The notes beneath the pieces are model-generated. The model had not been told where the DNA came from. It saw nothing but the letters and a program-made list of their open reading frames with translations, and ran no database searches. The position numbers and the translations under genes are program-made. This document shows, one piece after another, positions 1 through 11,121 of a stretch of 64,000 bases of DNA (its first letter is position 1; each line of letters starts with the position of its first letter). The DNA is taken from assembly GCA_964610785.1 (NCBI GenBank), contig CAZSZH010000003.1, positions 11,390-75,389 of the forward strand. The letters are read 5' to 3'. The DNA comes from an uncultured Flavobacterium sp. (lineage in GTDB: Bacteria > Bacteroidota > Bacteroidia > Flavobacteriales > Flavobacteriaceae).

Positions 1-173
1 TAATTGATATCTAAGGGTAGAATTAGCACTTCACATTCTTCGATAGTGTTGACAAAGCAATAGCTACTGTGAATAGGAGAGTTCTCTGTTGTAATCATTT
101 CATGAAAAAGCGGGAAAATTAAATTTTTATTTTCCTTGATTAAGAAACTCTTATCGGTGTAAATTTTAATCAT
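1..173 (-). CDS. 5' part of a gene running off the left edge; possibly an exostosin-like (GT47) glycan protein
   Basis: Not in the ORF track. ATG at 173-171 overlaps the TGA of the upstream GT (ATGA coupling). The frame is open to base 1: MIKIYTDKSFLIKENKNLIFPLFHEMITTENSPIHSSYCFVNTIEECEVLILPLDIN. The product guess rests only on recalled resemblance to Flavobacterium exostosin-domain N-termini. Confidence 0.55.
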   Translation of the reverse strand, partial: MIKIYTDKSFLIKENKNLIFPLFHEMITTENSPIHSSYCFVNTIEECEVLILPLDIN

Positions 174-1294
174 GTACTACTTGATATCAATTTTTGTATT
201 TCATCTTCAAAAAGATTGGTGGTGAAATTTCTTGACCAATGTATCGCCTCTTCAACTTTTTTTTGATACAAACTGTTGTTATTTAACAATTCAATTATTT
301 GCTGAACATCTCTTTCCAAATTCATTTCTAATAGAATTCCTCGTGTTCCTTTATCTAACATATCTGGAATACATGAAACTTTTGACGATATTGGCAAACA
401 TTTCCAAAACATTCCTTCTGCAATAACTTTGGGCCATCCTTCACTCTTAGAGGGTAAAATTACAAAATGACTTTTTATGTATGCTGTTTTAATTACCTCT
501 GAGGTTTGATTTCCTTTTAAAAAAATTATGCTCTCTAATTTATGAGTTTCAATATACTTTTGTAGTTGAGGTTTCAAATTACCATTTCCAAAAATATCTA
601 ATGATATATCTGAATAACTTTTTGAAACTTCTTGAACTATTTTTATTGCATATAGCGGATTTTTACCTTCAGCTAATGTTCCAACAAATACAAATTTCAA
701 TCCATCTTGGAGTGTTTTATTCTCAATCGGAATTTTATCTTTTTCAGCATAGCTTGCTGTAAAAAAAGATTTTATGCTTTTACTTTGATTCTGCCAAGTA
801 CCATAAACCAACACCTGTATATTTCTGGTTAACAATGAATTACTTAATATCCATTTTTGTATTCTATAACTTAACGGTTGTTTAGCTTTTGGATCCCAGT
901 TTCCTGCATACTTAGCAGTCTTGGGTTTATTTGGAAAAAACACTTGTACAAAACAACCCAACAAACCTACATTGCCAGGACATCGCAAATGAATATGATT
1001 TGCTTCTTTCATTGCCTTATAAATAGCAAAAACTATTTTGGGCACCTCCCTAATTGCATGAAATTTTGATTTAGAACCAATTACATTAAACTCATTTATG
1101 GGAATAAATTTTATTCCTTCTTTTTCATAATTAATAGAAATAGATGTTTTTTCTTCTAGCGTTAATGGAGCTACAATAATTAATTCGTCTGTATATCTAG
1201 CCCAGATGTTCATTTCTCTAACGTAAGGAGCATAGGCAAAAAATCTTCCATCTGCATTGCCATGAGGGACATGTGTAATAATTAAAAATTTCAT
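170..1294 (-). CDS. Glycosyltransferase family 4 (GT-B)
   Basis: C-terminal GT4 signature (FVFVGTLAEGKN, ILPSKSEGWPKVIAEGM). Start moved from the track's TTG at 1312 to the ATG at 1294 (MKFLII), which removes the overlap with the upstream stop at 1302. Confidence 0.9.
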   Translation of the reverse strand: MKFLIITHVPHGNADGRFFAYAPYVREMNIWARYTDELIIVAPLTLEEKTSISINYEKEGIKFIPINEFNVIGSKSKFHAIREVPKIVFAIYKAMKEANHIHLRCPGNVGLLGCFVQVFFPNKPKTAKYAGNWDPKAKQPLSYRIQKWILSNSLLTRNIQVLVYGTWQNQSKSIKSFFTASYAEKDKIPIENKTLQDGLKFVFVGTLAEGKNPLYAIKIVQEVSKSYSDISLDIFGNGNLKPQLQKYIETHKLESIIFLKGNQTSEVIKTAYIKSHFVILPSKSEGWPKVIAEGMFWKCLPISSKVSCIPDMLDKGTRGILLEMNLERDVQQIIELLNNNSLYQKKVEEAIHWSRNFTTNLFEDEIQKLISSST

Positions 1295-1301
1295 TAGAAA
1301 A

Positions 1302-2324
1302 TTAATTAACAAGTTTTGGTTTATTAAACCATAAACTTAACCATCCCACAAATCTACCTAAAGTTTCAGTAATCGCCTCTCTTTTTTTATTAGTTGTAAA
1401 AACATTACAAAATCTAACAATCGTAAGTAATACGGTAATGCAATGCCATTTTATTTTTGCTTTTAATGATGGATTTGGATATTTAATCCTCCAAACATAC
1501 CACCCATTTCTAACAACCATTTTTCCGTAAGTATATTTATTGGGTCTTCCAGATTCATCGTGAAAATGCTTAAGTTTGGCGGAAGTGTTTATAAAATTTT
1601 GTCCAAAATTTAACGCTCTTAAAGAAAAATCTGCATCTTCATATAATCCATATCCTTCGAAATAGGATGAAAATTTAATAGTATTGAAAATTTTTCTTCT
1701 AAAATTCATTGACATCCCAACCAGCAAATCTACCGGATATATTTCGCCAGTTAATGGATACGAACATGTTTTTCCATGAGAAAATTCCGGCATAACTCCA
1801 GGTAAAGAAGTTGAATTCAATTTTAATATATTTCTCAATTTATTTCTTGAGGATTCTTCGATATAAAAATTTTTAAAAGTGTATATAGACCTATTGGTAT
1901 CGTAATTATAAATATTTTCTTTCCATTTATTTTCATTAACTGCTACTCCGCCAACCCCAATAGCATCAATATTTGCAGAAAACGTTTCCATTATTTTTTT
2001 AAAATAATCGCTTTGGATTATTGTATCATCATCAAGGAAACAAACAATTTCAGAAGCTACAGAAACTTTAGATATTCCAAAATTTCGTTGTTTTGTTAAT
2101 CCTCTATGATCGTTAGAAACTAAAAAATAAGAAAGGTTTTCAAAACTATTTTCATTCAACATTTCACGAGTCTCATTATTGGTTGACCCGTCAATTATTA
2201 AAATTTCATTTGGATAAAGCTCTTGAAGTTTTACAGAATTTAGTAAATTCAACAAGGCTTTAGGGCGCATATAGGTACAAACCACTAAAGAAAAGAAAAA
2301 ATTATTTTTTTTTATTTCATTCAA
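1302..2324 (-). CDS. Glycosyltransferase family 2
   Basis: SLVVCTYMRP, IIDGS, RNFG and FLDDD (DxD) motifs. The TTG start overlaps the upstream TGA. Confidence 0.9.
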   Translation of the reverse strand: MNEIKKNNFFFSLVVCTYMRPKALLNLLNSVKLQELYPNEILIIDGSTNNETREMLNENSFENLSYFLVSNDHRGLTKQRNFGISKVSVASEIVCFLDDDTIIQSDYFKKIMETFSANIDAIGVGGVAVNENKWKENIYNYDTNRSIYTFKNFYIEESSRNKLRNILKLNSTSLPGVMPEFSHGKTCSYPLTGEIYPVDLLVGMSMNFRRKIFNTIKFSSYFEGYGLYEDADFSLRALNFGQNFINTSAKLKHFHDESGRPNKYTYGKMVVRNGWYVWRIKYPNPSLKAKIKWHCITVLLTIVRFCNVFTTNKKREAITETLGRFVGWLSLWFNKPKLVN

Positions 2325-3064
2325 GGTTTTGTAGAAATAAAAATTAAATTATTGTATCCTTTTTTACGATTGTATGTCTGGTTAAATTTCAAATAATATT
2401 CTTCCAAAGAATAAATTTCAATGTTTTTAAAACCTGCTGCTTCCAAATCTCTTTGTAATCCATTTTTAGTATAATAATATCCTAAAACCTTAAATCCTTT
2501 AAATCCTGTATTTCTATTTCCGACTGTTTCTCCTAAAAATGGTGAAAATAAACTTCTAATTTTAAAATAAAGCGTCTTTAAAGGAGTTCCCACTTGATTG
2601 TGAACTGTTCCTATTATGGATGCATTTGGTTTTAGTATTTCTAACGAAGTTTTAAAAATGGTCAAACGATCACCTCTATTTGGCACATACGTAAGCATAC
2701 TATTAAGCAATGTTACCAGATCAAATGTATTTTTTGTGCCTTGATAGAAAACTGCATTAGAGACTTGAGTTTCCGTAATTGAATCGATACCCCATTCCAC
2801 AATATTAGCTCTACATTTATTAATCATATTTTCCGAAATATCAGATGCCACAATTCGATCAGGATTATAAAAGTTTGCAATGGCGCCTATTTCACGACCT
2901 GTTCCACAACCAAAAATTTTTATTTCCCTTACCTCTCCATATTCTATATATCGTTGCTGCGCCTCTTGAAACATGAATAATTCAAAATCGGCAGCGTTTT
3001 TTTGTATGTCTTGTGTACTTATTATTTGGTCTTTTTCCCAAAAATCTTTATTTTCAATTTTCAC
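2321..3064 (-). CDS. Class I SAM-dependent methyltransferase
   Basis: Motif I FGCGTG, acidic residue in ASDISENM, post-II FDLV, LKPNASI. 4-bp overlaps on both sides. Confidence 0.85.
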   Translation of the reverse strand: MKIENKDFWEKDQIISTQDIQKNAADFELFMFQEAQQRYIEYGEVREIKIFGCGTGREIGAIANFYNPDRIVASDISENMINKCRANIVEWGIDSITETQVSNAVFYQGTKNTFDLVTLLNSMLTYVPNRGDRLTIFKTSLEILKPNASIIGTVHNQVGTPLKTLYFKIRSLFSPFLGETVGNRNTGFKGFKVLGYYYTKNGLQRDLEAAGFKNIEIYSLEEYYLKFNQTYNRKKGYNNLIFISTKP

Positions 3065-4143
3065 TTATTAGTCTTTTTAAATTGTCTCAATAACACCGAA
3101 ATACTTTTCTTGTGCTTTGACAAAATTGTTTTAAAACACAAATATAAATTAAAAAGAAATGGATTAAGAATAAAATAATAAAATGGTTCATCGAATAAAA
3201 TGGTATTTGTATTGAATTTTGATTTAAATTCGATAACACCTTTAGAACCCCCCATGGAGATATTATAACCACGATAACCCAGTTCATAGGATTTCTTTAT
3301 TATTTCCCAATGCAATAAGTACCCTATTTTCAAATCTGGCTTTTCCTTTTTAGTACCACCTGTTATGTAAGTCAAAGCATTTCCTCCTTTTACACAAAAA
3401 GCTACACCCTTGATATCATTGTTGATTTTAGCTATTATAAAATAAGCTTTATTTGCTGTAATTAATTTTAAAATAGTATCCCCAAAATCTTCAAATGATC
3501 GAACGGTATAATTTCCGTTTTTTGCATTTTCAGTTACCAGTTCGTAGGCTAATTTACATTCTTCAATAGTAGTAGCATAAGAAATTTTAGGATTGGATGC
3601 ATAGGATAGCTTAATATTTCGTCTAACTTGAATTGAAAATTGTTTTAAAAGCACTTCTGGAGATTGTGTTTTATTAAAATCAACCCAATTAATGCCATAT
3701 GCACTATAAATATGTTTAAACTTATTTCCCTTTTTATAATTTTTAAAAAATGGTGTAATTGCTTCTTTTGAAAAAGTTTTTGTTGAAATAATTATATTAT
3801 CTGCTGTTGGAATACTAAACTGAACATAACAACAACCTAATTTAGAAGCTCTGCCAACCAATTCTTTACTAACTAGTGGTAAATGTGCTTCCAAACCAGA
3901 ACTAAAAATTGGTCCGCTTGGAATACAATAAAATTTAAAAAAGGCAACTTTAGCAATTACAGAGCCATATCCGCCTACTATTTTCCCCTCTTTTAAACAA
4001 ATGCAAACTTCATAATCGAATCCGTATGAGGAATATGAATTCAACCAATCTGATAAAGAAAAATGATTTCCAATATCGTTTGAAATCAAAAAATCATCCC
4101 ATTTCTCATGCCATTTCGGTTCTTTTGTAAAAAATACTTCCAT
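3061..4143 (-). CDS. FemABX-like / GNAT-fold (lipid II:amino-acid ligase family) transferase
   Basis: IPSGP, LLKQFSIQVRRNIK, YITGG, LLHWEIIK and GVIEFKSKF match Fem-family conserved blocks. No coiled-coil insert, as in FemX. Confidence 0.75.
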   Translation of the reverse strand: MEVFFTKEPKWHEKWDDFLISNDIGNHFSLSDWLNSYSSYGFDYEVCICLKEGKIVGGYGSVIAKVAFFKFYCIPSGPIFSSGLEAHLPLVSKELVGRASKLGCCYVQFSIPTADNIIISTKTFSKEAITPFFKNYKKGNKFKHIYSAYGINWVDFNKTQSPEVLLKQFSIQVRRNIKLSYASNPKISYATTIEECKLAYELVTENAKNGNYTVRSFEDFGDTILKLITANKAYFIIAKINNDIKGVAFCVKGGNALTYITGGTKKEKPDLKIGYLLHWEIIKKSYELGYRGYNISMGGSKGVIEFKSKFNTNTILFDEPFYYFILNPFLFNLYLCFKTILSKHKKSISVLLRQFKKTNK

Positions 4144-5750
4144 TAGATTACGGTTCTGAATAGTAAATCTGTTTTGTTTTTTACAAATATTACACCTTGA
4201 CTATCAATATCCAAAACTAGATTTTCAAAATTTGACCAATAAGCAACTAATTCCTGTAATGTTGGATTCCAAATTTCGTTATTTTTAATTTTTTTACCAA
4301 GGCTTTCGAAGTTTTGTGCCACCTGCACATCAATAGTATTTTCATCTGAAAACAATTTTCCTTGATGATAATCCATGGGAACTGAAAAATAAGTGTGTGC
4401 CATAAAAACACCTTTTTCTTTAATTAAACTGTCAATATTTTTAGGATGTAAGGCTTTTTTGAAATCAAGCATTTCAATAGTTTGAAAAACATAAAATTCT
4501 TTTTGAGCAATAGTATGTTTGAATAAAATTGGAGTGTACTTTGCTAAATTATATGGTTTATTTCTACTGGTTCTCCAATTTAAAAACACAGCTATCAATT
4601 TAAAACTAATTGAAAATATATCCTTTACAAATGAAAAAAAATAGCTTAGTTGTTTATGGGTAATAAACTTTTTAAAGTTTGATGCAGTATTCTTATATTT
4701 CAAAATAAGTTCTTCATCGCCATAATAATGAAAGATAATATTCTTGAGCATTAACTGCAATCGCTTTATAAACGATAAATCTTTGGTTCCATTTAAAAAA
4801 CTCAATAAAGTAAAATGTGAAGGATTCAATTGATTCAGCACTCCAAGAGTAGCGGTGCCAGAGTCGATATAATTCCAAAGTATCCTTATATTCTTTTGAG
4901 ACAAAGCATTTTCATAATCATTATAATCAATGGCATTATTTTGAAAAAGGGAAAAATTATAGGGTTGATATCCGTGGTCAATCCAAGTAGTCGTATTGTG
5001 AAATGGTGGTTGAAAGGAAAAAAAATCATTATAGCTTTCTTCTTCTGATTTAATGGATTGCGATAAAGAGTGGTAACACAACTCATGTCCATCTTCTTTC
5101 CACTTGATCAATTCTTGTTCCTCATTTTTAAAGGAAGCATTATCTTCTCGTTTTGAAAAATGATTTAAAAAAAAGCCTTTTGTGGTTATTATTCCATTTT
5201 TTTTAAAAAATTCACGCTGCAATTTCAAGTTATTGGCAGTATCAAAATCACAATGATCGGTAAACACAGCAATGGCTGAAAAAGGAATCTTAGAACGACT
5301 GAATTCAATAGGTTTATTTGTAATTAATAAAGCTACATTTTCTATATGATGGTATTTTGAAGTAGCTTGCGCAATTGTTTTCTGATTTTTTTCTCCTTTA
5401 TAAATCGTTAAAGGCTTTGAATTAAGAGGGTTAAATCGCCACAACAAAATATTTGGCTTTTTTTTATCGATTTCCCAAATCCCCATAAAGCTATTAGGTT
5501 GAATAAAACTTCCGTTGCTTAATTGTATAATTTTAGGCAAAAATTCGTTAACATTACAACCATGATTTGGTTTAATCCAAGTATAATCGTGATTTCTAAA
5601 CGCTGTAATGGGTTTCGAAAATGTAATTTCTATATCAAAGGAATTTATTTTATCTTCAATAATATTGCTTAAATCTATTGCAACCTTATTGGATTGGTTA
5701 TCACAAAGAAATTGAATTCTTTTTCTATTAATAACTATTGACTGTATCAT
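4143..5750 (-). CDS. Hypothetical protein with a polysaccharide-deacetylase (NodB/CE4)-like central domain
   Basis: 535-aa ORF coupled to both neighbours. AVFTDHCD, GHELCYHS and WIDHG resemble CE4 motifs 1-3. Confidence 0.55.
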   Translation of the reverse strand: MIQSIVINRKRIQFLCDNQSNKVAIDLSNIIEDKINSFDIEITFSKPITAFRNHDYTWIKPNHGCNVNEFLPKIIQLSNGSFIQPNSFMGIWEIDKKKPNILLWRFNPLNSKPLTIYKGEKNQKTIAQATSKYHHIENVALLITNKPIEFSRSKIPFSAIAVFTDHCDFDTANNLKLQREFFKKNGIITTKGFFLNHFSKREDNASFKNEEQELIKWKEDGHELCYHSLSQSIKSEEESYNDFFSFQPPFHNTTTWIDHGYQPYNFSLFQNNAIDYNDYENALSQKNIRILWNYIDSGTATLGVLNQLNPSHFTLLSFLNGTKDLSFIKRLQLMLKNIIFHYYGDEELILKYKNTASNFKKFITHKQLSYFFSFVKDIFSISFKLIAVFLNWRTSRNKPYNLAKYTPILFKHTIAQKEFYVFQTIEMLDFKKALHPKNIDSLIKEKGVFMAHTYFSVPMDYHQGKLFSDENTIDVQVAQNFESLGKKIKNNEIWNPTLQELVAYWSNFENLVLDIDSQGVIFVKNKTDLLFRTVI

Positions 5751-7291
5751 TTTGTACGTTTTCCCAAAGCCATTAATTTTCTTGCGTAAAATACAGACTT
5801 GTTAAATTGTAGTATTCTATATGGTAATTTAATTATTTTAAAAGGTAATTCCCATTTGTTTCCTTTAAAAAAATACATTGAAAAATACTTATGTTTATAT
5901 TCCACAAGCTGTTGTGCTGTAAATTGTTTATGAATTTGATACATAATAGTTGGACTAGGAATAGGTCGGATGTGCTTTACCGGCGTGTCCAATTCCCAGG
6001 GTTGGGTTTTTCGTTTTTTACCCATAATTTTAGCTTGAGATCCCCAAAATCGATAGCCTCCCATTGGTGGCTTTAGATGCAAATTTGTAGAGAATGGATT
6101 ATGAAGAACGGTAACACCAATTTTAGTTAATGAAATTCCAAAATCACTATCTTCACCATAACCTCCATCATAATTGATGTCATTACCCACTAATTGATTT
6201 ACAAATTCTCGCTTCACACATGAATTTGCGTTGCTGAAACTATTTGAGGCTCCTACTACCCATCGATTATCTTTAAAATTGTCTAATTTCAACTGTAAAT
6301 CTATTAAGGTTTGTTTTTCGTGATCGGCTCTTATATCTAATCCATTACAAGCTCCAGCATTGTAGGTTTGTAACAATCGAATATGATTTTCAATAAAATC
6401 GTTGGGAATTCTAATATCGTCATCGCCAAAAACAATATAATCTCCTGTACATAAATCAATCGCTTCATTTCTAGCGCGACAACTCCCTTTAGTCGTTTGC
6501 CATTTAAAAATAACTTCAAACGGATAATTCGATGGCTGATACAAACTCTCATCTCTGCTTCGCTCTGGCGTGGCATCGACCACAATTACTTGAGAAGGAA
6601 GATAAGATTGTTTACTTAAATCATCTAATAAATTTAAAGTAAAATCTTGACGCATCATTGTTGGAATGATGTAACTAACTGTTGGATTTCCCAGAATTTT
6701 ATTAAGTACTTTTGGAGGGATTGTAGGCAATGATTGACGCTTTTCAACATTATTTTTGGCATGTAAAAAAGCATTCCATTCACTTATTTTCCAAAATCCT
6801 TTTCTGTAAAGCATGAATAAAGAATGGTATAATTTGAAATTTTTTCTATAAAAATCATATCGATCTTTAGCAGAAATTGTAATAATATCTTTGTCAGCTA
6901 CTTCAAATAAATTTTTTACATACAATGAAATCGCACCACAATTTGAAATGGCATTAAAAGCAAAATCAAATCCACTTAAAATTAAATTATGATACTCATA
7001 ATCAAAACCTCCCAAATGTTCCCAAACTGATTTCCGAACGGCAAAATGATTTGGATTTAGTCGCCAACTAACACATTCGTCAAGATTATCAAAATCATTA
7101 ACATACCAAAAAAATATACTAGTTTGGTAAACTATATCTGAAAAAGCATTTTTATACCCTTGCTCAAATGAACTATGCCAGATATCACCCGATCCATTAG
7201 AAAGTTCCTCTAACTTTTCTAGATTAGGTGTTCCGTTATACAGAATTATCTCTCCATTTTGAGTAGTATATTCTTTTAAAATTAATGCCAT
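5747..7291 (-). CDS. Glycosyltransferase family 2 with a ~200-aa N-terminal extension
   Basis: VSYIIPT, VIVVDA, ARNEAI, FGDDD and GEDSDF in the C-terminal 310 aa. Confidence 0.88.
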   Translation of the reverse strand: MALILKEYTTQNGEIILYNGTPNLEKLEELSNGSGDIWHSSFEQGYKNAFSDIVYQTSIFFWYVNDFDNLDECVSWRLNPNHFAVRKSVWEHLGGFDYEYHNLILSGFDFAFNAISNCGAISLYVKNLFEVADKDIITISAKDRYDFYRKNFKLYHSLFMLYRKGFWKISEWNAFLHAKNNVEKRQSLPTIPPKVLNKILGNPTVSYIIPTMMRQDFTLNLLDDLSKQSYLPSQVIVVDATPERSRDESLYQPSNYPFEVIFKWQTTKGSCRARNEAIDLCTGDYIVFGDDDIRIPNDFIENHIRLLQTYNAGACNGLDIRADHEKQTLIDLQLKLDNFKDNRWVVGASNSFSNANSCVKREFVNQLVGNDINYDGGYGEDSDFGISLTKIGVTVLHNPFSTNLHLKPPMGGYRFWGSQAKIMGKKRKTQPWELDTPVKHIRPIPSPTIMYQIHKQFTAQQLVEYKHKYFSMYFFKGNKWELPFKIIKLPYRILQFNKSVFYARKLMALGKRTK

Positions 7292-9556: not shown

Positions 9557-10957
9557 TTAATTGATTGGAGTGTTATTTTTTAATATTTCTACAATACGTT
9601 TACTGGTCCCTTCTAATGGTTTTCCTATTTGGAGTTTCACCAATTCTCGTTGGCAATTTAATTTTTGATTTGGATTTTTTAAATCCAAATTAATGGCATT
9701 TACTAGTTCATTTTCATTTTTGGCAATGGTAACTGCTCCACTCTCAATAACAGTCATATAATGAGTATAGTTTAAAAATCTTTGATCATCATATAAACCA
9801 TTGATCTTATTTCCAAATGCTGTGTTGATAACTGGCTTATCAAAGAGCATGAAATCTAAACTCATAGTGGAACACATATTAACATTCAAATCAACAAATT
9901 GCAAAATCGACTTTAAATCAATAAAATCCTCTACTGTTGGTATTCTTTGTGACCAATTTTCGGAATGATTTTCTCTTGTTAATTCCCATGCAGGAAAATT
10001 CCAAGCTATTTCAGGAAATTCACTTTTTAAAGATTCAAATCTTTTTCCATCATCCGCTGGAGAAGTTCTTACCAATAATTGTGAATCGCATTCAATCAAA
10101 TTATTTCTTATTGCCAAAGCAATAATTTTAATCACCAAAGCGTCGTTCTGACCAATTGAACTGTCTGCACAACTAAAGCAAATTATTTTTTTAGTGCTAT
10201 TTAATTTAAATTTTTCCAGAAATTTATTTTTATCTACAGAATAAGTGTCCATAGCATAAGGTTCGAATTGTGGAGTTCCAACTATTACTACATTTTCTGG
10301 TTTTGTAGCTGGATAGAAATACAATAACTCTTTTTTCATTAAATCACTCCAAACCAAAAAAGTATCAAAGGTTCCTAACATTCTTCCTTTGGAAGATAAA
10401 TTATCCCAACTAAAAATAAAAGTCCCAACTGGAATTTTCAATTTTAATACACTGTACAAAAATGGAGCTAAATAAGTCGGTCTTTGATGGGTAAAAAAAA
10501 CATAATCAGGCTGATCTTCTTTTAACAATTTTAAATATGTCTTTGTCACTTTATTGTTTGCAAAAGTAAGAAATTGTAGTTTTTCTATTCCTTTTATAAA
10601 TGAGTTTGAGTTAAAAAAACGAGAACTAAAATAAATTAATCGTGTTAAAATAGACTTCGGTGTATATTTTTTTGGCATTCCCATTACTAGCAAATCATTC
10701 ATTCCGTAGAATGTTTTATTTTGCTGTAAATGAGCTGTTTCTTTATATTTTCTAAAAAACCATGTGGTGATTGTTTCTTTAAAAACTTCTAATTCACGTA
10801 TTTCAACCGAAGGATGGTTCAATTTATAAGTTCCTTTAGGAAGCCCTGAGTAAATAATAATTGTATCAAATTGATGGATTGCTTCACTTATAAAATTACT
10901 CATTATGTAATTTCTATATCCAACCCCATCAGTAATTACAATCCCTAATTTTTTCAT
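9557..10957 (-). CDS. Uncharacterised GT-B / CDP-glycerol glycerophosphotransferase-like protein; candidate nonulosonate transferase
   Basis: FSWDNLSSKG, VGTPQFEPY and STMSLDFMLFDKPVI blocks resemble TagF-like / capsule GT-B proteins. Start set at MKKLGIVITDG (10957) rather than the track's 10996. Confidence 0.6.
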   Translation of the reverse strand: MKKLGIVITDGVGYRNYIMSNFISEAIHQFDTIIIYSGLPKGTYKLNHPSVEIRELEVFKETITTWFFRKYKETAHLQQNKTFYGMNDLLVMGMPKKYTPKSILTRLIYFSSRFFNSNSFIKGIEKLQFLTFANNKVTKTYLKLLKEDQPDYVFFTHQRPTYLAPFLYSVLKLKIPVGTFIFSWDNLSSKGRMLGTFDTFLVWSDLMKKELLYFYPATKPENVVIVGTPQFEPYAMDTYSVDKNKFLEKFKLNSTKKIICFSCADSSIGQNDALVIKIIALAIRNNLIECDSQLLVRTSPADDGKRFESLKSEFPEIAWNFPAWELTRENHSENWSQRIPTVEDFIDLKSILQFVDLNVNMCSTMSLDFMLFDKPVINTAFGNKINGLYDDQRFLNYTHYMTVIESGAVTIAKNENELVNAINLDLKNPNQKLNCQRELVKLQIGKPLEGTSKRIVEILKNNTPIN

Positions 10958-11121
10958 TTCAATACCTATCAAAACTATTATTCTTTCAACCTTCAAATAT
11001 CATTGTTTTTTTTGGAATTTAAAAACATTAAGTAGTATAATCAGAAAACTCCGACTTAAATCACAGTATGTTTTGTTGTAGAAGTTAATTGTAAAATTTT
11101 GAAAAATTAAGTATTTCACTT

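Follow-up and report, generated by a model that had tools for sequence, protein, structure and literature searches.

O-antigens and capsules contain amino sugars decorated with amino acids. The closest described systems to the one reported here join a putative deacetylase to a FemAB-like transferase. In Porphyromonas gingivalis and Tannerella forsythia, the CE4-type protein VimE, with a CE4 match reported at E 1e-83, is a proposed sugar deacetylase that would remove a 2-N-acetyl group, and the FemAB-like VimA, reported as a match to TIGR03019 (pep-cterm_femAB), adds Ser or Gly to yield the T9SS linking sugar (PMC7468200). In these oral Bacteroidota the deacetylase/Fem pair makes the sugar by which secreted virulence proteins are anchored (PMC7468200). 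The linking-sugar pathway differs in Prevotella, where the route of alanine onto a deoxy-amino-hexose was stated in 2025 to be unknown (PMC11969387). A comparable pair, a TIGR03006 deacetylase and a TIGR03019 FemAB protein, is that of PEP-CTERM/exosortase EPS.

Enzymes of the CE4/NodB type, metal-dependent de-N- or de-O-acetylases, have a distorted (beta/alpha)7-8 barrel and normally a D-H-H metal triad. GH57 glycoside hydrolases combine a (beta/alpha)7 barrel with a Glu nucleophile and an Asp acid/base. In CE4 enzymes several sequence motifs line up with these roles. Motif 1 (TFDD) holds the catalytic-base Asp and a metal-binding Asp, and motif 2 (H[ST]xxH) two metal-binding His; the Arg of motif 3 (RxPY) positions the catalytic base, and motif 5 (LxH), on the last strand, provides the catalytic-acid His.

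Here we analyse a locus of an uncultured Flavobacterium sp. in which an unannotated protein (termed X) is encoded directly before a FemAB-like transferase (termed Fem). The window is the whole stretch of DNA that was analysed, 64,000 nucleotides in length. We hold it reasonably probable that X is a divergent CE4/NodB-type 'glycoside hydrolase/deacetylase' barrel protein supplying the amine onto which the coupled Fem places an amino acid, with a capping step to follow.

THE LOCUS AND ITS FEATURES

The ORF of X is uninterrupted on the minus strand, and the plus-strand frame across the same interval is riddled with stops. The glycosyltransferase gene upstream and X share an ATGA stop-start overlap, and X and fem share one of the form TAATG, the latter already noticed in the original prediction. 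Coordinates are collected in Table 1. Fem passes two Pfam models, FemAB (PF02388; E 9e-13, 48.2 bits against a cut-off of 24) and Acetyltransf_6 (E 4e-6, 27.5 against 22). Fem matched no NCBIfam model at E <= 0.1, and no protein of the genome matched TIGR03019. The genome has no second member of the Fem family; its one other FemAB_like gene (contig C60) is unrelated. The same locus also encodes two AT3-type acyltransferases and a Wzm/Wzt ABC transporter, and among the scanned ORFs of the window a DegT aminotransferase and a Polysacc_synt_2 dehydratase were present; no WbpA- or WbpB-type gene was found there.

Table 1. Positions in the window of the genes around X and of the domains and motifs of X
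Feature	Position	Strand	Basis
GT1-family glycosyltransferase, 380 aa; conserved cassette end	170..1312	-	Pfam Glycos_transf_1, 1e-20; co-conserved
GT2 glycosyltransferase, 340 aa; bounds the variable slot on its downstream side	1302..2324	-	Pfam
Class I SAM methyltransferase, 247 aa; likely third ('capping') step	2321..3064	-	Pfam Methyltransf_25/12/11
Fem, FemAB-like/GNAT (Acetyltransf_6) transferase, 360 aa	3061..4143	-	Pfam; translationally coupled to X
X, 535 aa; two-domain, probably cytoplasmic, highly divergent CE4-like putative N-deacetylase	4143..5750	-	ORF, AF2 model, fold matches
X, catalytic-type (beta/alpha) barrel, residues 156-535, with helical insert ~315-405	4146..5285	-	VIA-align ranges 156-509; hhalign
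X, AHTY (451-454), last barrel strand; candidate equivalent of CE4 motif 5 (LxH)	4389..4400	-	H452, Y454 invariant; equivalence by position only
X, hydrophobic helix 368-392 inside the helical insert	4575..4649	-	Kyte-Doolittle 19-residue mean 1.66; model helices 346-365, 368-390
X, LWNYID (291-296), aligned to the CE4 W...D / YDSS region	4863..4880	-	W292, D296 invariant; hhalign
X, WIDHGYQPY (256-264), PY on the PY of CE4 motif 3 (RxPY)	4959..4985	-	hhalign; H259 invariant; D258, G260, Y264 nearly so
X, GHELCYHS (221-228), counterpart of CE4 motif 2 GHEIxxH[ST]xxH	5067..5090	-	hhalign; E223, H227 invariant
X, TDHCDFD (164-170), at the place of CE4 motif 1 TFDD, the C-terminal end of barrel strand 1	5241..5261	-	D165, H166, D168, D170 invariant; model secondary structure
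X, N-terminal beta-sandwich domain (residues 1-150)	5301..5750	-	All-beta in whole-protein and isolated-domain models (domain pLDDT 85)
GT2 glycosyltransferase, 514 aa, ~200-aa N-terminal extension; upstream cassette partner	5747..7291	-	Pfam Glycos_transf_2, 8e-15, residues 206-362

DOMAINS AND PREDICTED FOLD

Sequence searches with X against Pfam (E <= 0.1), NCBIfam and the PDB gave no match, and a profile of 19 sequences matched nothing in the PDB. Its homologues, mostly from Flavobacterium, number 642 at 90% clustering and fall into 266 clusters at 50% identity; some are named 'NodB homology domain-containing' in UniRef. Among the 54 relatives aligned for conservation, which reach down to 17-20% identity, sub-threshold matches were obtained to DUF2334 in four and to Polysacc_deac_1 in four (best E 0.046), and none of the 54 matched Pfam Glyco_hydro_57. 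The nearest language-model look-alikes are unnamed clusters; the first named one, DUF2334/Polysacc_deac_1 at 0.81, is used as a lead only.

The AF2 model of X (pLDDT 79, pTM 0.83) consists of an N-terminal beta-sandwich and a barrel. The N-terminal ~150 residues, which the original prediction left unassigned, are modelled as a beta-rich domain of their own. When folded alone this domain had weak matches (Z <= 6.7) to mutarotase-like accessory domains of GH31, GH36, GH2 and GH38, all below Z 8 and so without a fold assignment. In a 495-aa relative (P0237) the matched stretch begins only at position 146 of the profile.

For the barrel of the predicted model (residues 156-509) the closest solved structures found by VIA-align are CE4-type deacetylases. 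The top structural matches, at Z 11.8-14.9 over ~207-216 residues, are the PuuE-like PA1517 (1z7a; Z 14.9, rmsd 3.3, 216 aligned), HpPgdA (3qbu; Z 14.0), MSMEG 3rxz (Z 13.7) and ArnD (8t0j; Z 11.8), and further ones include a chitin deacetylase (5z34; Z 12.8) and PelA (Z 11.3). In all, ~30 entries annotated as CE4-type or deacetylase reach Z >= 8; the fold matches also include the acetylxylan esterases 7fbw and 2cc0 and the CE4 pseudoenzyme 7bkf (Z 9.9). GH57 entries score slightly lower (Z 11-12.6: 7e1y at Z 12.6, and 1k1w, 9jlr and 2b5d). The model is therefore a barrel of the CE4/GH57 type and not an unrelated fold, as had been anticipated from the motifs. A whole-model Foldseek search instead placed GH36, GH31 and GH97 entries at the top of its list; these were dismissed, with TM 0.17-0.30 and rmsd 8-19 A, and we read their ranking as an effect of the beta-sandwich-plus-barrel layout.

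The CE4 subgroup of 3qbu, 1z7a, 3rxz and 8t0j has three elements in common with X: the strand KxTxF and the motifs GHE..H and YDS(S). X differs from these proteins in being only 6-12% identical and twice as long, in adding the beta-sandwich and a ~90-residue helical insert, and in having Gln for the second His of motif 2. By annotation, ArnD is a cytoplasmic enzyme whose substrate is a lipid-linked amino sugar, and a like setting is proposed for X, which is probably cytoplasmic, judging from its sequence, because its most hydrophobic windows include no N-terminal stretch.

MOTIFS AND PUTATIVE METAL SITE

The three motifs that drew attention to X, TDHCD (residues 164-168), ELCYHS (223-228) and WIDHG (256-260), are all present in the protein, and they are not due to chance, since each contains residues that are invariant across the 54 sequences, which reach 17-20% identity. 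Fourteen residues of this alignment are invariant down to 17% identity: D165, H166, D168, D170, K191, F194, E223, H227, H259, W292, D296, G447, H452 and Y454. That so many residues, mostly polar, persist at this distance argues for X as an active enzyme.

X has no significant match to the sequence model PF01522 (gathering score 23.1 bits); the remote homology is seen by profile-profile alignment, and a profile was required on both sides. With hhalign, X aligned to TIGR03006-like CE4s at E 1.8e-5 and a probability of 78%, pairing TKGFF with KATFF, GHELCYH with GHEIxxH, QPY with (R)xPY and YIDS with YDSS. The same register was found against short canonical CE4s (E 7.8e-4), and the single sequence of Escherichia coli ArnD gave no signal (probability 0.06%).

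In motif 2 (GHELCYH227SLSQ231) H227 takes the place of the first metal-binding His. The second is replaced by Gln231, a position that is Gln in the close X family and Q, H, P and others in distant members. The metal triad of X is therefore not the canonical D-H-H. The deacetylase-like metal motifs of the original prediction agree with CE4 in that GHELCYHS falls on motif 2 with H227 kept, and depart from it at the second His. A comparable loss is seen in the metal-independent PuuE allantoinases. The Arg of motif 3 is also absent from X: P263-Y264 align on PY, and the Arg position is Gln262 or a gap. TDHCDFD is a candidate counterpart of TFDD by its position after strand 1, in a region where hhalign has no confidence. 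I450-A451-H452 lie on strand 448-453 of the model, outside the confidently aligned region.

GENE LINKAGE ACROSS GENOMES

In 200 sampled Flavobacterium species X was found in 31 and Fem in 27; 24 of the 31 carriers of X have both, adjacent in 22. Among the 72 X loci with enough downstream sequence, Fem lies directly downstream of X in 51. About 29% of loci are without it; in the 20 counted as having no Fem, a different, 289-aa methyltransferase-like gene takes its place (17 loci) or X leads straight to the GT2 gene (three). Homologues of X thus mostly have a Fem-like neighbour, the partnership on which the original prediction was built. The slot is bounded: a GT2 of the 514-aa type stands upstream of X in most cassette-type loci, and in related loci the 340-aa GT2 follows Fem and the methyltransferase, the 289-aa gene, or X itself.

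The adjacent methyltransferase had been put forward as a possible third step, and the comparison supports this: a methyltransferase follows Fem in 28 of the 51 loci, and in most of the others a small GNAT-like ORF stands there instead. No such small ORF was found in the source genome, which is 92% complete. In distant relatives and in another genus, X, Fem and the small GNAT-like ORF occur together in shuffled orders (X-Fem-small, small-X-Fem, Fem-small-X and Fem-X-small). One distant relative of X neighbours radical-SAM genes instead of Fem.

COMPARISON WITH KNOWN SYSTEMS

The likeness to VimE/VimA of the Wbp/Vim pathway, drawn from the published description of VimE, is that of a putative deacetylase with a FemAB-like transferase in Bacteroidota; in the X-Fem loci a deacetylase-fold gene stands beside a FemAB-like/GNAT gene, and this arrangement is conserved across genomes. 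In the Vim system the Wbp genes (WbpA/B/E/D) make the di-N-acetyl uronic acid that serves as substrate. Wbp-type gene families lie near the distant X-Fem pairs P0160 and P0216; one distant X-Fem pair adjoins AsnB-like, Epimerase_2 and GFO/IDH/MocA genes, which are families of the Wbp pathway. Unlike VimE, X lacks any family match and has an N-terminal domain and a helical insert; unlike VimA, Fem falls short of TIGR03019, yet it passes Pfam FemAB and Acetyltransf_6. X-Fem is also distinguished by its methyltransferase or small GNAT-like ORF, which may cap the amino acid. A region reached through TIGR03019 matches (G117) was considered as a genuine vimA-vimE locus and was not recognisable as one.

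The PEP-CTERM/exosortase pair is likewise a deacetylase with a FemAB-like protein, and its TIGR03006 side is what X approaches in profile alignment; neither X nor Fem, however, reaches the TIGR03006 or TIGR03019 model. In eight Bacteroidota genomes an HMM search found no Fem homologue within 6 kb of the TIGR03006-like genes, so these deacetylases cannot simply be equated with VimE. Elsewhere, in another Bacteroidota genome (G065, locus L166), a Wzx/Wzy polysaccharide locus has neighbouring genes for a methyltransferase, a FemAB protein and a canonical CE4 (PF01522), in the order methyltransferase-Fem-CE4. The FemAB protein there is matched by the Flavobacterium Fem profile at 4e-21; the deacetylase, in contrast to X, is a common Polysacc_deac_1 protein of 251 aa.

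PROPOSED FUNCTION OF THE X-FEM PAIR

Computation gave the fold prediction for X, its residue conservation and its linkage to neighbouring genes, and these support the original reading of the locus as one that deacetylates, then aminoacylates, then caps. Since X is predicted to have a deacetylase-type fold and Fem is its near-constant neighbour, the two probably work together to replace an acetyl group of a surface sugar by an amino acid. The amino sugar would most likely still be at the inner membrane face, bound to a nucleotide or a lipid, when X strips off its N-acetyl (or a similar N-acyl) group and exposes the amine. The coupled Fem would place an amino acid on the freed amine, with aminoacyl-tRNA as the presumed donor. 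A third enzyme would cap or further modify the product; here this is the methyltransferase, and in many other genomes it is a small acetyltransferase of GNAT-like type. The glycosyltransferases on either side would incorporate the decorated sugar into a surface polysaccharide, for export by the Wzm/Wzt transporter of the locus. Within this scheme four points are inferred: that X deacetylates, which donor brings the amino acid, which sugar is the target (of HexNAc or sialic-acid type) and in what order the steps stand to glycosyl transfer.

X could instead have this fold and hydrolytic activity but catalyse another reaction, for instance as an O-acetyl esterase, an ArnD-like deformylase or another N-acyl amidase; it would then not feed Fem and would be linked to it through a shared decoration cassette. 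CE4 does include O-deacetylases, the two acetylxylan esterases matched by the barrel among them, as well as the deformylase ArnD; this reading is also favoured by the X loci that lack Fem and by the two AT3-type acyltransferases. We think it unlikely nonetheless, given that the adjacency of Fem survives several permutations of gene order, down to 17-20% identity, that a canonical N-deacetylase-type CE4 occupies the same slot beside a Fem homologue elsewhere (the G065 locus), and that the range of partners found downstream (Fem, methyltransferases, radical SAM) suits the modification of a newly exposed amine.

The scores of the GH57 entries, the head of the Foldseek list and the weak resemblance of the beta-sandwich to GH31/36/2/38 accessory domains could together be taken to mean that X is a GH57/GH38-like glycoside hydrolase or transglycosylase that trims or remodels the glycan. 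This is very unlikely in our judgement: the Foldseek superpositions are poor and the N-domain matches stay under Z 8, the sequence signal is that of CE4 motifs (GHE..H, PY, YDS) and not of GH57, and X is apparently cytoplasmic and lies among biosynthetic genes. As for activity itself, the incomplete D-H-H triad and the lost motif 3 Arg, the pseudoenzyme precedent of 7bkf and the tight translational coupling would fit a catalytically dead CE4-like protein that assists Fem by binding the sugar or by acting as a scaffold. The 14 invariant residues, chiefly Asp, His, Glu and Lys, cluster at the barrel strand ends, however, and X is retained in the 20 loci without Fem, which makes a dead partner highly improbable.

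A different question is the destination of the sugar. If X-Fem did in Flavobacterium what VimE/VimA do, the surface polysaccharide would contain a 'linking sugar' bearing an amino acid, and the T9SS sortase PorU would attach cargo proteins to the amine of this sugar. To our knowledge, the linking-sugar pathway is known from Porphyromonas and Tannerella alone. In favour we count this precedent in Bacteroidota and the stand-alone trios of X, Fem and small ORF that lie among T9SS cargo genes with Por_Secre_tail domains; these neighbourhoods are one syntenic region and hence not independent cases. Against it we count that X is present in just ~15% of Flavobacterium species and that Fem is almost always followed by a gene, for a methyltransferase or a GNAT-like protein, whose product may cap the amine. 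On balance we give this destination very little credence.

If X is the deacetylase of an acetyl-to-amino-acid swap, several hundred 'hypothetical proteins' unrecognised by domain libraries gain a name and a testable role, and the deacetylase slot of such modules can hold a very divergent, two-domain CE4-like predicted enzyme with an altered metal-site motif. The unit of three genes that recurs here, one deacetylase-like, one Fem-like and one for a cap (methyltransferase or small GNAT-like), would then be usable as a predictor of amino-acid-modified glycans from genomes. The X cassette is also present in F. johnsoniae, in the order GT2-X-Fem-MT-GT2 (MT, methyltransferase). Finally, the hydrophobic helix in the insert of X is a possible membrane-association element; 7 of 14 sampled relatives have their hydrophobic maximum (1.19-2.52) in the same place, near residues ~370-392.

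Gene and locus

The 535-residue protein considered here (X) is encoded within a run of minus-strand genes; only that strand is open, the plus-strand translation being stop-ridden. The ORF of the original prediction, its three motifs (TDHCD, residues 164–168; ELCYHS, 223–228; WIDHG, 256–260) and its downstream overlap are confirmed, with the strand corrected. The TAA stop of X and the ATG of the Fem-like gene (Fem) have the last A in common (TAATG), and the ATG of X overlaps the stop of an upstream GT2 gene (ATGA), so that X is translationally coupled on both sides. Fem scores above the Pfam cut-offs for FemAB (9e-13) and Acetyltransf_6 (4e-6), and Pfam identifies the following ORF (MT) as a class I SAM methyltransferase.

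Judged by its gene content, this is a surface-polysaccharide locus, with several glycosyltransferases (GT1, GT2 and GT4), a NeuC-like 2-epimerase, a NeuB, a CMP-sugar synthetase, two AT3 acyltransferases, FkbM-type methyltransferases, a Wzm/Wzt ABC exporter, a Polysacc_synt_2 dehydratase, a DegT aminotransferase and a Wzc-like protein. The protein adjoining the NeuC-like gene has a sub-threshold match (4.6e-8) to the BFO_1060 family glycosyltransferase model, and its homologue directly follows X-Fem-MT in seven related loci. Elsewhere the genome carries three ordinary CE4 genes and a second Acetyltransf_6-bearing gene that is unrelated to Fem; the contig of the latter has gldN at its end, and the gene context is unrelated to polysaccharide synthesis.

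Coordinates of X, its neighbours and related features
Feature	Location	Strand	Description
X	window 4143–5750	-	535 aa
Fem	window 3061–4143	-	FemAB-like/GNAT transferase
MT	window 2321–3064	-	247 aa
NeuC-adjoining protein	window 9557–10996		479 aa
Second Acetyltransf_6 gene	G000:C60:4378–5523 (L128)		window's genome; FemAB_like (PF04339)
Replacement protein	L012:8567–9436		289 aa
Replacement protein	L007:8620–9489		289 aa
Genes upstream of X-Fem	L066:5158–6911		Polysacc_deac_1 (canonical, 306 aa) and GNAT gene (278 aa)
Decayed X	G315:C27:36239–37822		Flavobacterium genome; many in-frame stops
Small ORF	L035:9687–10151		
Small ORF	L159:6499–7020		
Small ORF	L161:7943–8419		
Small ORF	L164:8897–9403		
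Small ORF	L174		
Small ORF	L175		

A divergent family of putative deacetylases

Sequence searches of Pfam, NCBIfam and the PDB returned no match to X. A 90%-clustered protein collection gave 642 matches, nearly all Flavobacterium ‘hypothetical proteins’; a few carry the UniRef name ‘NodB homology domain-containing’. Searched with a profile, 1.84 billion representatives yielded 266 clusters, including a distant group of 600–680 residues. Fourteen positions are invariant in a 54-sequence alignment reaching down to 17–20% identity (D165, H166, D168, D170, K191, F194, E223, H227, H259, W292, D296, G447, H452 and Y454), and the three motifs are therefore a conserved family core rather than chance.

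The AlphaFold model (pLDDT 79, pTM 0.83) comprises an all-beta domain (residues 1–150) and an alpha/beta barrel (~159–510) that holds a helical insert of ~90 residues (~315–405). An exhaustive VIA-align search with this model returned mostly CE4-type deacetylases, the barrel anticipated in the original prediction: 1z7a (PA1517, PuuE-like; Z 14.9, rmsd 3.3, 216 aligned), 3qbu (HpPgdA; 14.0), 3rxz (putative polysaccharide deacetylase, Mycobacterium smegmatis; 13.7), 5z34 (Bombyx chitin deacetylase; 12.8), 8t0j (ArnD; 11.8) and 9cgy (PelA; 11.3), with many further CE4s lower in the list. Foldseek matches of the whole model to GH36, GH31 and GH97 were poor (TM 0.17–0.30) and were set aside. Folded alone (pLDDT 85), the N-terminal domain matched mutarotase-like accessory sandwiches of glycosidases at Z ≤ 6.7, too weak for assignment.

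Eight TIGR03006-like CE4 proteins of Bacteroidota were combined into a profile, which the catalytic part of the X family matched in hhalign (E 1.8e-5, probability 78%); a profile of 14 short canonical CE4s was matched in identical register (E 7.8e-4). The aligned blocks pair TKGFF with KATFF, GHELCYHSLSQ with GHEIxxHxxxH, QPY with the PY of RxPY, and YIDS with YDSS. By this alignment ELCYHS is CE4 motif 2, with H227 the predicted counterpart of the first metal-binding histidine. The second is Gln231 in X, a position variable in distant members, and the motif 3 arginine is absent. TDHCDFD, after strand 1, and IAH452, on the last strand, fall at the places expected of TFDD and LxH, outside the confidently aligned region. 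The D-H-H metal motifs originally proposed are thus partly right: X resembles CE4 enzymes, yet its site departs from the canonical triad. H166 and H259, both invariant, may serve as substitutes.

No N-terminal hydrophobic stretch is found among the most hydrophobic windows of X, which is therefore probably cytoplasmic. The insert contains a hydrophobic helix (368–392) that about half of the sampled relatives also have close to this position; such a helix would suit action on a lipid-linked sugar at the membrane, the role annotated for ArnD.

Gene partnership

From 80 species-level X loci we counted the 72 with at least 3 kb downstream of X. Fem lies directly 3′ of X in 51, followed by MT or a short GNAT-like ORF (small ORF) in all but one. 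Among 200 sampled Flavobacterium species, X occurs in 31, Fem in 27 and both in 24 (adjacent in 22), as against ~4 expected were they independent, related genomes not being independent samples. The expected pairing of X with a Fem-like gene is thus borne out. X is a patchy accessory gene, present in ~15% of Flavobacterium species and in six of 400 sampled Bacteroidota genomes.

Genes downstream of X in the 72 loci
Arrangement	Loci
Fem - MT - GT2 (as in the window)	18
Fem - MT - candidate nonulosonate transferase	7
Fem - small ORF (154 aa)	21
Fem - small ORF - GT2	1
Fem - MT - MT - small ORF - GT2	3
Fem - GT2	1
Different methyltransferase-like gene (289 aa), without Fem	17
GT2 directly	3
Small ORF only	1

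In L012, L007 and 15 other loci one protein, with weak methyltransferase-domain matches, replaces Fem and MT in the slot between X and GT2. In the NeuC-adjacent cassette of L066, a canonical deacetylase gene and a GNAT gene directly precede X-Fem, making two consecutive deacetylase/acyltransferase pairs. The decayed X copy in G315 is in keeping with X being accessory and dispensable. A full Flavobacterium-type cassette, GT4-GT2-X-Fem-MT-GT2-GT1, its X being 51% identical, lies on a contig whose title names a Bifidobacterium breve MAG (L070, CALPIE020000013.1); the contig is probably mis-binned or mislabelled.

About twenty Flavobacterium species have a stand-alone X-Fem-small ORF trio with glycosyltransferases absent nearby (e.g. 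L035, L027, L032, L037, L039 and L058), between citrate synthase and ADI/DDAH genes and beside T9SS cargo genes; being a single syntenic site, these count as one case. The trios are flanked by proteins bearing the C-terminal sorting domain of T9SS, one of which is a C25 (gingipain-family) peptidase. Among distant relatives the order is Fem-small-X (P0205 and P0222, ~18% identity), Fem-X-small (P0216, in a Wzx/Wzy locus with UDP-sugar dehydrogenase and hexapeptide acetyltransferase), X-Fem-small (P0160, with AsnB-like, Epimerase_2 and GFO/IDH/MocA genes) and, in another genus, small-X-Fem. Every Fem protein of these trios is a homologue of the Fem in the window (E 1e-13 to 1e-25), and homology likewise links the small ORFs (E 1e-7 to 1e-21). 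Membership is constant while order is shuffled, good evidence for a joint role of these genes. The small ORF family (154–175 aa, its C-terminal motif GNAT-like, its Pfam GNAT matches weak and sub-threshold) accompanies both genes in varied arrangements across distant lineages; none was found in the window's genome, where MT follows Fem instead.

As exceptions, P0237 is without Fem and has radical-SAM and methyltransferase neighbours, and in G037, a further X carrier, Fem is absent within the short flanks covered. The P0247 gene is at a contig start, its upstream side off the contig. In a Wzx/Wzy locus of another Bacteroidota genome, a Fem homologue (4e-21 against the Flavobacterium Fem profile) has a methyltransferase on one side and an ordinary Polysacc_deac_1 deacetylase of 251 aa on the other; this locus is predicted to encode the same three activities, a canonical CE4 occupying the slot of X.

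Proposed function

The deacetylate-then-aminoacylate reading, with a capping step, comes through the comparisons of both fold and Fem partnership, and we consider it the probable one: X would N-deacetylate a sugar, the Fem-like aminoacyl transferase would act on the product, and the methyltransferase would cap it. That X is a hydrolase of another chemistry we think unlikely. GH57 enzymes (7e1y and others) also match the model, at Z 11–12.6, among mostly CE4 hits; a GH57-like glycosidase seems distinctly improbable. Least likely is a non-catalytic partner, to be set between the loss of canonical CE4 residues and the invariance of 14 positions.

This deacetylation and aminoacylation by X and Fem would follow the logic of a known kind of system. 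VimE is described as a putative member of CE4, and for VimA matches to N-acetyltransferases and to TIGR03019 are reported; Tannerella forsythia vimA switches the linking sugar of Porphyromonas gingivalis from seryl to glycyl, and it was proposed that VimE takes off the 2-N-acetyl group before VimA attaches the amino acid (Veith et al., PMC7468200). PEP-CTERM loci also hold deacetylase/FemAB pairs (PMC7468200). Prevotella, which lacks VimA and VimE, has an N-alanyl deoxyhexosamine linker, the route of alanine transfer to such a sugar being stated as unknown (PMC11969387). Unlike these proteins, X is not recognisable as a VimE-type CE4 and the window's Fem falls below the TIGR03019 model. Two things are new here: the divergent enzyme family, which has two domains and an altered motif at the metal site, and a third ‘cap’ gene that recurs. 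That the sugar anchoring T9SS cargo in Flavobacterium comes from this module is very unlikely, because X is found in only ~15% of species and the amino acid is probably capped.
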